Below are positions 26,501-29,500 of a stretch of 64,000 nucleotides of DNA, one piece after another. The stretch lies in assembly GCF_963506605.1 (NCBI RefSeq), contig NC_083281.1, positions 60,388,001 through 60,452,000 on the forward strand. Direction: 5' to 3'. A model generated the notes under the pieces. That model was not told where the DNA came from, did no database searches, and saw only the letters and a program-made list of their open reading frames with translations. Each line of letters begins with the position of its first letter. Within the stretch, counting starts at the first letter, position 1. The position numbers and the translations under genes are program-made. Source of the stretch: Zootoca vivipara (taxonomy: Eukaryota).

Positions 26501-29500
26501 GGGCCGCAGTTTGGGGATGCCTGCTGTAGAATATCAATAAATTTTACAAGACAGAATAGAAGCCACCTGCATTGAATACACAATGGAGAGCTGTGGGAAA
26601 AGCTAGTCTGAGTCAGTGAAACTTCCCACTACAGTGGAACCTCGGTTTACGAACACAATTGGTTCCAGAAGTCTGTTCATAAACCGAAGTGTTCGTAAAC
26701 CGAAGTGAACTTTCCCATTGAAAGTAATGGGAAGTTGATTAATCCGTTCTAGACGAGGAAAAACACCCTCTAGAACGGATTAACCGCTTTGCTCCGATGC
26801 CTTCGCGGAGGCTGGGGAGCGTTTCCGCGACTGGGCTGCAGCCGCGAAAGCGGTCCCCGGCCTCCGCAAAGATATCGGAACAAAGCCCCAGCCTCCGGAA
26901 GGCATCGGAGCTGGGACTTCGCTCCGATGCCTTTGCGGAGGCGGTCCCCGGCCTCCACAAAGGCATCTGAGCGAAGTCCCGGCTCCGATGCCTTCCGGAG
27001 GCCGGGGAGCATTTCCGCGACTGGGCTGTGCAGCCGCGAAAGCAGTCCCCGGCTACCGGAAGCCGGGGACCGCTTTCGCGGCTGCACAGCCCAGTCGCGG
27101 AAACGCTCCCCGGCCTCTGGAAGGCATCGGAGCGAAGTCCCGGCTCCGATGCCTTCCGGAGGCTGGGGAGCGTCGCGAAAGTGCTCCCCGGCCTCCGCAA
27201 AGACATCGGAGCGAAGTCGCTCCGATGCCTTTGCGGAGGCCGGGGAGCACTTTCGCGACTGGGCTGTGCAGCTGCGAAAGCGGTCCCTGGCTTCTGGTTG
27301 CCGGGGACCGCTTTCGCGGCTGCACAGCCCAGTCGCGGAAACGCTCCCCGGCCTCCGGAAGGCATCAGAGCCGGGACTTCGCTCCGATGCCTTTGCGGAG
27401 GCCGGGGAGAGTCGCGAAAGTGCTCCCCGGCCTCCGCAAAGGCATCGTAGCGAAGCCGCTCCGATGCCTTCCAGAGACCGGGGAGCGTTTCCGCGACTGG
27501 GCTGTGCAGCTGCGAAAGCGGTCCCCAGCTTCCGGTAGCCGGGGACTGCTTTCGCGGCTGTACAGCCCAGTCGCGGAAACGCTCCCCGGCCTCCGGAAGG
27601 CATCGGAGCCGGGATTTCGCTCCGATGCCTTTGCGGAGGCTGGGGAGCCGCGAAAGCGGTCACCGGCCTCCGCAAAGGCATCGGAGCGAAGTCCCGGCTC
27701 CAATGCCTTCCGGAGGCTGGGGCTTTGCTCTGATGCCTTTGCGGAGGCCGGGGACCGCTTTCGCGGCTGCAGCCCAGTCGCGGAAACGCTCCCGGCCTCC
27801 GCAGAGGCATCGGAGCGAAGCCCAGCCTCCCCGAAGGTATCCGACGCTCCGATGCCTTTGGGGAGGTTTGGCCTTCGCTCCGATGCCTTCGGGGAGGCTG
27901 GGCCTTCGCTGCGGGCCTCCAGGAGGCATCGGAGCGAAGGCCCGGCCTCCCCGAAGGCATCGGACGCTCAGTAGACCTCCGGCACCTCGGTTTACTAACT
28001 TCCGGGTTAGGATAGTTCGTAAACCGAAAGTTCGTAAACCGAGGTGTTCGTAAACCGAGGTACCACTGTACTTAATGTGGTCCCCAGAAGCTGCCCATCC
28101 CAGAGTCTCATACACAACTACTGTACAAACTAGTAACCTGCCAGTCCAGAAAGTAGATGCTTTCTCTGTCCAAGGAAGACAATACTTCCTGACAGAAACC
28201 TAGGTGACACCTACATAAGTTCACCATGAAAAAGTGTGTTTTTAAATAGTGATTTTTTATTTTAAAAATTGCACATACAGCTGCCTTGAGGACTGTTAGC
28301 CTCCTTGCAGACCATCCATTTGAAAGGCAGGGCACTAATCTTTAAAATAAATAAATTCTCTCTCCATAATTCAGCATTTGCACTGTGTACAGCAGGCATC
28401 CCCAAACTTCGGCCCTCCAGATGTTTTGGACTACAATTCCCATCATCCCTAACCACTGGTCCTTTTAGCTGGGGATCATGGGAGTTGTAGGCCAAAACAT
28501 CTGGAGGGCCGCAGTTTGGGGATGCCTGGTGTACAGTATATATATATATATATATTTAAATTTTTACATCCTTTTCTATACTTTGCTGCAGAATAGTTAG
28601 CAAGAAGAAACAGCATTTCATAGTGTCCAGCACTCACCTTTAACTGGAAGAGTGTATCTGTGAAGAGAAAGATGACAATAGTTGGGTTTCAGGGGAAAAA
28701 GGAGGTCTCAGAATGAAGGGTACTGACTGAAATTTCCACTAACCCAAACATTCCTTCTAGCTCAAAGAGGTCCAAACTGGGTACATTAAATAAACCCTTT
28801 CCATAGAGCAACAAAAATCCTTTGTGTATAGCAACTTTACATGAGGAATATGAAATACATTTATATCTATACAATGAACTAGCTCCTACATTTTTTACAT
28901 TTGCTGCTAAAAATCATTACATTTTTCCAGTCCCACAGGAGGAATCACTGCATCTTGGAGCTCAACTTCTTGACCTGTCATGCATTTATAGCCTATATAC
29001 TAATCATGTGACAATATACTAGTAAGCCAGTCTTTCAAAGTGCCACAGCACTTTCTCTCTCCAGAATTCAACACTCAACCTTAACTACGGCAATCATTTT
29101 CCTCTGTACTCTGGCCTCTCAAGCTGCCTGGAGGATAACTCCTAGCTGGAGACTCCTGTTCTACCTCTGTGGTGAAGGTAAATCGATCAAACACTATGTC
29201 ACCCAGGTAACTGGCTCATACACTGTGTCACCTGCCTGGCATCCAGGAACAGGAAGTGGCATACAAGAAATGAGGAAAATACATTACTGCTTGTTAAAGG
29301 ATCCCCTTTTGAAGACTCTAAACATGAGTCTTATCTGGCTCACAAAAATGATTCTCTTGAAAGGACTGCCAGCCAGACGAGTGGCTAGAAAAACCCAGTC
29401 AGATGGGCAGGGTACATATAATAAAAATATTATTAAAATTATTATTATGAAAAGATCAGTTTCTGGCCAATGCAAACATGTCTCTCACAAAATAAAAAAA

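Follow-up and report, generated by a model that had tools for sequence, protein, structure and literature searches.

A nested GC-rich palindrome in an intron of Zootoca vivipara: probably the near-consensus interior of a young pogo/Tigger-type transposon subfamily

How does a kilobase of intron come to be a palindrome built of smaller palindromes? The question is posed by one window of the Zootoca vivipara genome (64,000 nucleotides; assembly GCF_963506605.1, contig NC_083281.1, positions 60,388,001 to 60,452,000), in which an initial annotation, made from the letters alone, described a nested palindrome inside a transposable element. One way to understand such a structure is to locate its origin not in the gene where it is found but in the history of the element that carries it. 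The palindrome is real, and it is not special to the CHMP1A locus; it probably represents the interior, close to consensus, of a non-autonomous pogo/Tigger-type subfamily that is young and methylated, and it was likely built stepwise by fold-back template switching and slippage on filler that was itself likely captured from host first-exon CpG islands. For CHMP1A, in whose intron 2 this copy lies, it is likely a neutral passenger, a by-product without a role in the gene.

The block occupies 26791-27816 of the window. The three hairpin centers claimed for it, near 27057, 27296 and 27533, are borne out at 27057/8, 27295/6 and 27533/4, and belong to second-level hairpin 1 (26960-27155; arms 26960-27057 and 27058-27155, 88%), hairpin 2 (27231-27360; arms 27231-27291 and 27300-27360, 90%) and hairpin 3 (27458-27609; arms 27458-27533 and 27534-27609, 91%), the last an inverted copy of the first; none of the three has an assigned strand. 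The block as a whole is also palindromic, as had been proposed: set against its own reverse complement it matches in 916 of 1058 alignment columns, and its outer arms, at 26791-26942 and 27666-27816 (both plus strand), are 95% complementary, as are 26815-26942 and 27666-27793 within them. The proposed RNA-fold check gave a folding z of -60 relative to 20 dinucleotide shuffles (990 nt). Two details of the description have to be altered: the hairpins, drawn as A-B-loop-B'-A', have nearly no loop, and the end point at 27820 does not hold for the modules, which reach about 27965; the added stretch (27817-27965, strand unassigned) consists of older, simple 31-bp module hairpins common to older stages of the lineage. 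The block has a GC content of 68% and a CpG observed/expected ratio of 0.99; for the window the ratio is 0.31. The long dsRNA, ADAR/Dicer substrate and cruciform-prone site named in the initial annotation are predictions, and hairpins in single strands would be likelier than extrusion of a cruciform, the centers being GC-rich and mismatched.

Much of this self-similarity can be written on a single short template. In a path search, 1002 of the 1026 interior bases are covered by 21 forward or reverse segments of an 86-bp template, H (26972-27057, part of the left arm of hairpin 1); the path is a zig-zag with 17 strand reversals, which are not to be equated with 17 events. The middle of the palindrome is also a 238-bp unit repeated 3.3 times in tandem, and nesting is partly expected because this repeated unit is self-complementary. 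Even so, the outer arms and hairpin 3 still need inverted copying: over 152 bp of the family majority sequence, hairpin 3 differs from hairpin 1 by one mismatch when compared inverted, and by five when compared directly.

The element around the palindrome spans 26632-28068 (1437 bp), is non-coding, and is flanked by TA target-site copies at 26630-26631 (confirmed by an empty allele with one TA) and 28069-28070, neither with an assigned strand. Its left end (26632-26776, plus strand) comprises a 23-bp terminal inverted repeat (TIR; 26632-26654) and the subterminal region of a pogo/Tigger-type parent; its right end (27984-28068, plus strand) comprises a subterminal region and the second 23-bp TIR (28046-28068). 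At 26771-26787 (plus strand) there is a collapsed fold-back remnant, a reverse copy of the left subterminal region, which marks the stage of the subfamily called S4 below; the full left fold-back is present in stage S3 copies and absent from the transposase element, an order of events that we infer. The host context had been read correctly: CHMP1A intron 2 (25555-28637, minus strand) lies between an exon at 25477-25554 (minus strand) that matches CHMP1A residues 10-35 in a PDB search (E 1.8e-8) and a 20-bp exon, read by eye, at 28638-28657; the window's short CHMP1A exons, matched in that PDB search, gave no match in a Snf7 Pfam search. Elsewhere in the window, two direct copies (90% over 121 bp) of a very abundant palindromic MITE, which we take to be hAT-like, flank the element about 2 kb apart at 26373-26523 and 28377-28530, with heavy RNA-read cover that comes from paralogues, and a decayed single end at 54965-55047 bears a related Tigger-like TIR.

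The exact TIR end has 1377 matches in the genome, and a control has none. Of the 30 family loci read first, 28 are complete, and all 28 have a TA target-site duplication. The first 30 TIR matches by position represent 28 distinct elements; most of these are plain forms of 188-427 bp, those of 188-241 bp carrying the same TIR as the 1437-bp window element, and 6 are GC-rich arrays. Classical MITEs are short, a few hundred bases, and uniform in length. At 1437 bp, and with 56 lengths among 62 S4 copies, the window family is not one of these; nor is the window element a Foldback element, as its TIRs are 23 bp, its ends asymmetric and its inverted arms internal, for all its foldback-like behavior.

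The claim of a Tc1/mariner MITE thus stands as to a TA-flanked non-autonomous element of the ITm group, and fails as to Tc1/mariner, the partner transposase being of pogo/Tigger type. A decayed 2723-bp element (L144, C4:57.29 Mb) has matching ends, a DDE_1 gene and no GC-rich interior; the window's ends are 87% identical to it over 145 bp on the left and 94% over 62 bp on the right. A second element (L265), 96% identical to L144 and 5'-truncated, has a 573-aa frame with CENP-B_N, HTH_Tnp_Tc5 and DDE_1 domains and a DD36D signature, the 36 residues counted by eye. A complete transposase element with an intact frame and both ends was not found for the exact window family; related families, at 82-87%, carry open frames. 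A multi-copy DDE_1 family with a 452-aa frame was considered as partner and rejected for want of a matching TIR. Apart from the window family, a multi-copy DDE_1 family occurs at C2:70.81 Mb and about 12 other loci of near-equal score, with open frames of 383-534 aa; it is probably young and does not match the window TIR. In the available text of Gao et al. 2020 (PMC7386202), Tigger elements of the pogo superfamily have a TA target-site duplication, TIRs under 40 bp, the same three domains and DD36D, a signature also found there in Mover. With these the window family and its partner share the TA duplication, short TIR, domain set and DD36D, the differences being that the window element is non-coding and that the partner's DD36D fits Tigger or Mover. 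By these marks (TA duplication, 23-bp TIR, a partner DD36D transposase inside the DD29-36D range), the window element is a non-autonomous member of the pogo superfamily.

Palindromes are hard to assemble, and the support for the window copy comes from short-read contigs, not spanning long reads, so an assembly artefact has to be considered. It is extremely improbable: the collinear form, of 1415-1438 bp, is present at seven distinct loci with unique flanks, and contigs cross the element's junctions in three read sets (both junctions in run X1, the left in X2 and X6), of which X1 or X2 is possibly the assembly's own source. Run X6 contains the filled junction together with a contig that passes directly from left flank to right flank, an empty site with a single TA; the insertion is therefore still segregating. 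Intact CpGs had been taken to mean that the structure was young or unmethylated, an ectopic CpG island. Youth is upheld, and lack of methylation is not: among 33 long copies, the per-site frequency of CpG transitions is 2.4%, that of other untemplated changes 0.31%. Deamination of methylated cytosine raises CpG transitions, and from this roughly 8-fold excess it follows that the family is methylated in the germline. On this sequence evidence, the intact CpGs would reflect youth, not lack of methylation.

Comparison with other copies, which had been suggested as a check, finds a consensus interior and not an invariant one, as the interior varies among copies. The 238-bp unit has 218 candidate loci, and the best place in each of 40 that were scored is 95-100% identical. 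The window copy is collinear with another (L015), for which reason the structure is taken as the family consensus, not as something formed at CHMP1A; it stands 17 substitutions from the family majority, eight of them at CpG. A lineage marker gave 157 matches, from which, with earlier similarity matches, 96 complete, distinct copies were read (those on C1 to part of C8 among the 157; four copies without both ends were dropped, loci with the same flank and length were merged to one row, and one of two extractions of L188 was removed, taking 97 rows to 96). Stages S0 to S4 were defined by the left junction. Long young forms are over-sampled, since some of the S4 copies had been picked up through their likeness to the window copy.

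With the transposase copy as root, and with L128 and L188 omitted, the tree built from the ends is a ladder ending in S4 (informative sites are few, and no support values were read). Divergence of the ends at non-CpG sites is 0.3% in S4 versus 1.5-2.8% in S0-S3, and their CpG decay 3.5% versus 16-28%. Old copies have one-level hairpin units in tandem; S3 copies have a fold-back that is a reverse copy of the element's own left end, reduced in S4 to the collapsed remnant. A second-level center is found in 43 of 62 S4 copies and in none of 34 older ones, and 18 S4 copies have three centers. Despite near-identical ends, the S4 copies run from 467 to 1580 bp. Among individual loci, L061 (G000:C7:38614984 onward) is about 2.25 kb long, with most of its interior tandemly duplicated and the right TIR tip absent; L188 (G000:C3:120.128 Mb) is a 245-bp, whole-element palindrome with two right ends; L009 and L010 (G000:C19:37.51 Mb), both of 1416 bp, are identical in sequence, share their flanks and lie 4.2 kb from each other, which makes them a local duplication; and around L325 and L326 (G000:C5:4.20-4.28 Mb) a larger tandem duplication contains a family member five times, at intervals of 14-26 kb.

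Capture of host CpG islands, which appears to supply the family's GC-rich material, is missed in the initial annotation. Three TIR-less parental loci were found, at C7:79.39 Mb, C7:30.99 Mb and C1:49.39 Mb, each with a CpG island, an ATG-bearing exon and a GT donor. The first (GC 67.5%, CpG observed/expected 0.89) has a P4-ATPase Pfam match 27 kb downstream on the same strand, and its 23-residue first exon had no PDB match; its gene is presumably ATP9A-like. Pieces of the second (CpG observed/expected 0.84), at 82-97%, are the filler of S0 copies in the window lineage. The third was compared only with sister elements, where an array of another module, modX, extends from the end of the piece captured from it. 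A marker for these sisters gave 91 matches; at least half of the interior lies in inverted words in 13 of 25 complete sister elements (three of 28 loci, being incomplete, were omitted), and their arrays use other modules, up to 12 + 12 copies in 2.7 kb. A chimera, L269 (G000:C1:127.61 Mb), with four to five close copies, has a left half of S4 type, while its right half contains the P4-ATPase first exon as captured, and the coding part of that exon makes up a hairpin array in itself. Within L269, 63 bp of the C7:79.39 Mb exon recur about seven times, in both orientations. In two sister lineages captured host DNA is itself the repeated hairpin module.

For the window copy the connection is more remote. 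The element, including the 86-bp template, gave no significant match to the two C7 parents; the template's link to a donor is only about ten bases, at the end of the captured C7:30.99 Mb filler, and comparison with the parents found did not yield a source for the A module. Measured by what defines a multicopy Pack-TIR, several copies do lie at distinct insertion sites; an unlinked parental copy can be assigned to related and ancestral-stage elements; and recognizable parental DNA is apparently lacking in the window copy itself.

Traces of the rearrangement process remain in the copies. The 33 long copies carry 117 distinct non-CpG changes. Of these, 40 agree with a paralogous module, where 7.6% would be expected, and 9 agree with an inverted module alone, where the expectation is 1.9% (p 5e-4); the surplus of templated changes consists in part of ancestral states of sub-lineages, and some inverted-only changes are C>A at CpG and may be faster-mutating. 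Of the 23 deletion junctions, 18 have at least three bases of microhomology, a feature of 7.8% of random pairs. Most variants of the long subfamily are explained by forward deletions alone, and for a minority the score improves if an inverted segment is allowed; recent change is shown to be mostly microhomology deletion, with some inverted copying. Of the initial proposal of repeated template switching during gap repair, inverted, strand-switch copying is upheld; gap repair as its occasion would be our inference. At least 17 copies of 861-884 bp (the L074, L037 and L083 groups, e.g. G000:C10:56.25 Mb) are passengers inside another young DNA transposon, whose ORF is decayed and whose terminal repeat is not that of the family. 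Seventeen of them show four architectures, one with an inverted segment, across host sub-lineages separated by 1-4 differences over the 540 bp of flank that can be compared. They were considered as a clean control for coupling to transposition and rejected, as the host transposon is probably cut-and-paste too.

The route we propose would begin with an element that, as observed, has retained nothing of a transposase element but its ends, with foreign filler inside; related elements carry first-exon CpG-island fragments from three host loci that have no TIRs. In the window lineage a short hairpin seed would have arisen beside the filler; simple hairpin units would then give way to the left-end fold-back, this to second-level hairpins, and these to inverted and tandem copies, which is the order seen on the subfamily ladder. 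The unit event would be the snapping back of a nascent single strand on its own short inverted repeats, most likely in germline excision-gap repair, each round adding sites for the next switch; the recent phase, as observed, would be one of dominant microhomology deletion with some inverted copying. Transposition would fix and spread each stage of hairpin growth. A tie between switching and transposition was not seen, and passenger copies inside the other transposon are also rearranged. A second perspective keeps the same capture and ancestry and supposes that any copy, once inserted, is rearranged when ordinary replication forks stall and slip at its hairpins (FoSTeST-like), and that transposition merely spreads the donor's variant. 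The rearranged passengers and the predominance of microhomology deletions are what it would predict, and it is the route favored for multicopy Pack-TIRs in the available text of Tan et al. (PMC8277862). It also has points against it: copies that have diverged further do not carry more structural events (Spearman -0.30, p 0.12; n 29, from the 33 long copies, with low power), passengers within one host sub-lineage are identical or nearly so, and gap repair may have acted in the passengers as well, their host being probably cut-and-paste itself. We regard this second route as possible, though on balance doubtful.

Selection might also act on the hairpin array at the level of the transposon, through more copy gain or end pairing, so that lineages converge. 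At least three unrelated modules have been amplified alike, and nesting is deepest in the youngest stage, which expanded recently; but plain forms predominate in the position-ordered shared-TIR sample, and recent change is mainly loss, so this seems unlikely. A bolder reading, a Tigger-type 'promoter-capturing hairpin factory', would have the element prefer the first exons and CpG islands of germline-open genes and, by runaway fold-back, produce long perfect hairpins in dozens of polymorphic copies, small RNAs then silencing the donors in trans or the fold aiding the element's own spread; this too we hold to be improbable. Very unlikely, finally, is service to the host, as an intronic source of dsRNA or small RNA or as a new CpG island on CHMP1A. 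The predicted RNA fold is extremely stable and the intron is transcribed, but the insertion is polymorphic, stands close to the family consensus and belongs to a group of more than 100 relatives, and the CpG excess is that of methylated DNA. About 6% of the reads from each of three raw RNA data sets, matched at 95% likeness, gave a mean depth of 0-0.67 over the interior and near zero across most of the intron, with exon depth only about 4-11; as hairpins can block RNA library making, these depths do not bear on expression or editing. For CHMP1A itself the insertion is probably of little consequence.

The interest thus lies mainly in the family, which would preserve, in datable form, successive rounds of fold-back template switching in the germline of a vertebrate: datable because the near-identical ends give a clock, while the steps of capture, fold-back, duplication and collapse can be followed in their order through the interiors. 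It makes testable whether non-autonomous elements are remodeled during gap repair or at stalled forks, suggests how host promoter DNA can become a template for long hairpin RNA, and extends the short list of animal multicopy Pack-TIRs by three first-exon CpG-island captures.

Each part of the scenario has a precedent, in Pack-TIRs, foldback elements or tandem-repeat MITEs; for the combination, first-exon/CpG-island capture with iterative palindromic nesting in a vertebrate (reptile) pogo/Tigger element, a search that excluded subscription journals and repeat databases found no report. Multicopy Pack-TIRs, as presented in the available text of Tan et al. 2021 (PMC8277862), are TIR elements with host DNA, repeated transposition, a bias to high-GC donors and a proposed origin by template switching, with four multicopy cases from frogs and alligators plus the fly Ssk-FB4. 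The present family shares the capture, the repeated transposition and the high-GC donors; that text describes no amplification of a captured piece into hairpin arrays such as occur here, where, moreover, all three donors are ATG-bearing first exons with CpG islands. The clam tandem-repeat MITE DTC84, in the part of the report available (PMC3879986), has an ordered array of repeat variants, a palindrome in each unit and length variation, as here; its repeats keep one orientation with a 12-nt palindrome, whereas ours alternate in orientation at three levels of nesting. For the Aedes Goblin MITE, a Tc1/mariner derivative, the available account (PMC3814204) explains an inversion by gap-repair template switching, as we propose; that was a single switch at the birth of the family, in contrast to iterative growth. 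Galileo, of foldback type, has in the text available (PMC3573991) long, internally repetitive inverted arms and high structural dynamism, as here, but belongs to the P superfamily and its repeats are the TIRs, whereas in the present family the TIRs are short and fixed and the filler is the foldback. Finally, foldback inverted duplications at yeast breaks (PMC11724301, as far as available) arise by microhomology-driven fold-back synthesis, the very unit step proposed here; those are single short events of about 5-34 bp in an experimental system, whereas the family in Zootoca presents a nested array.
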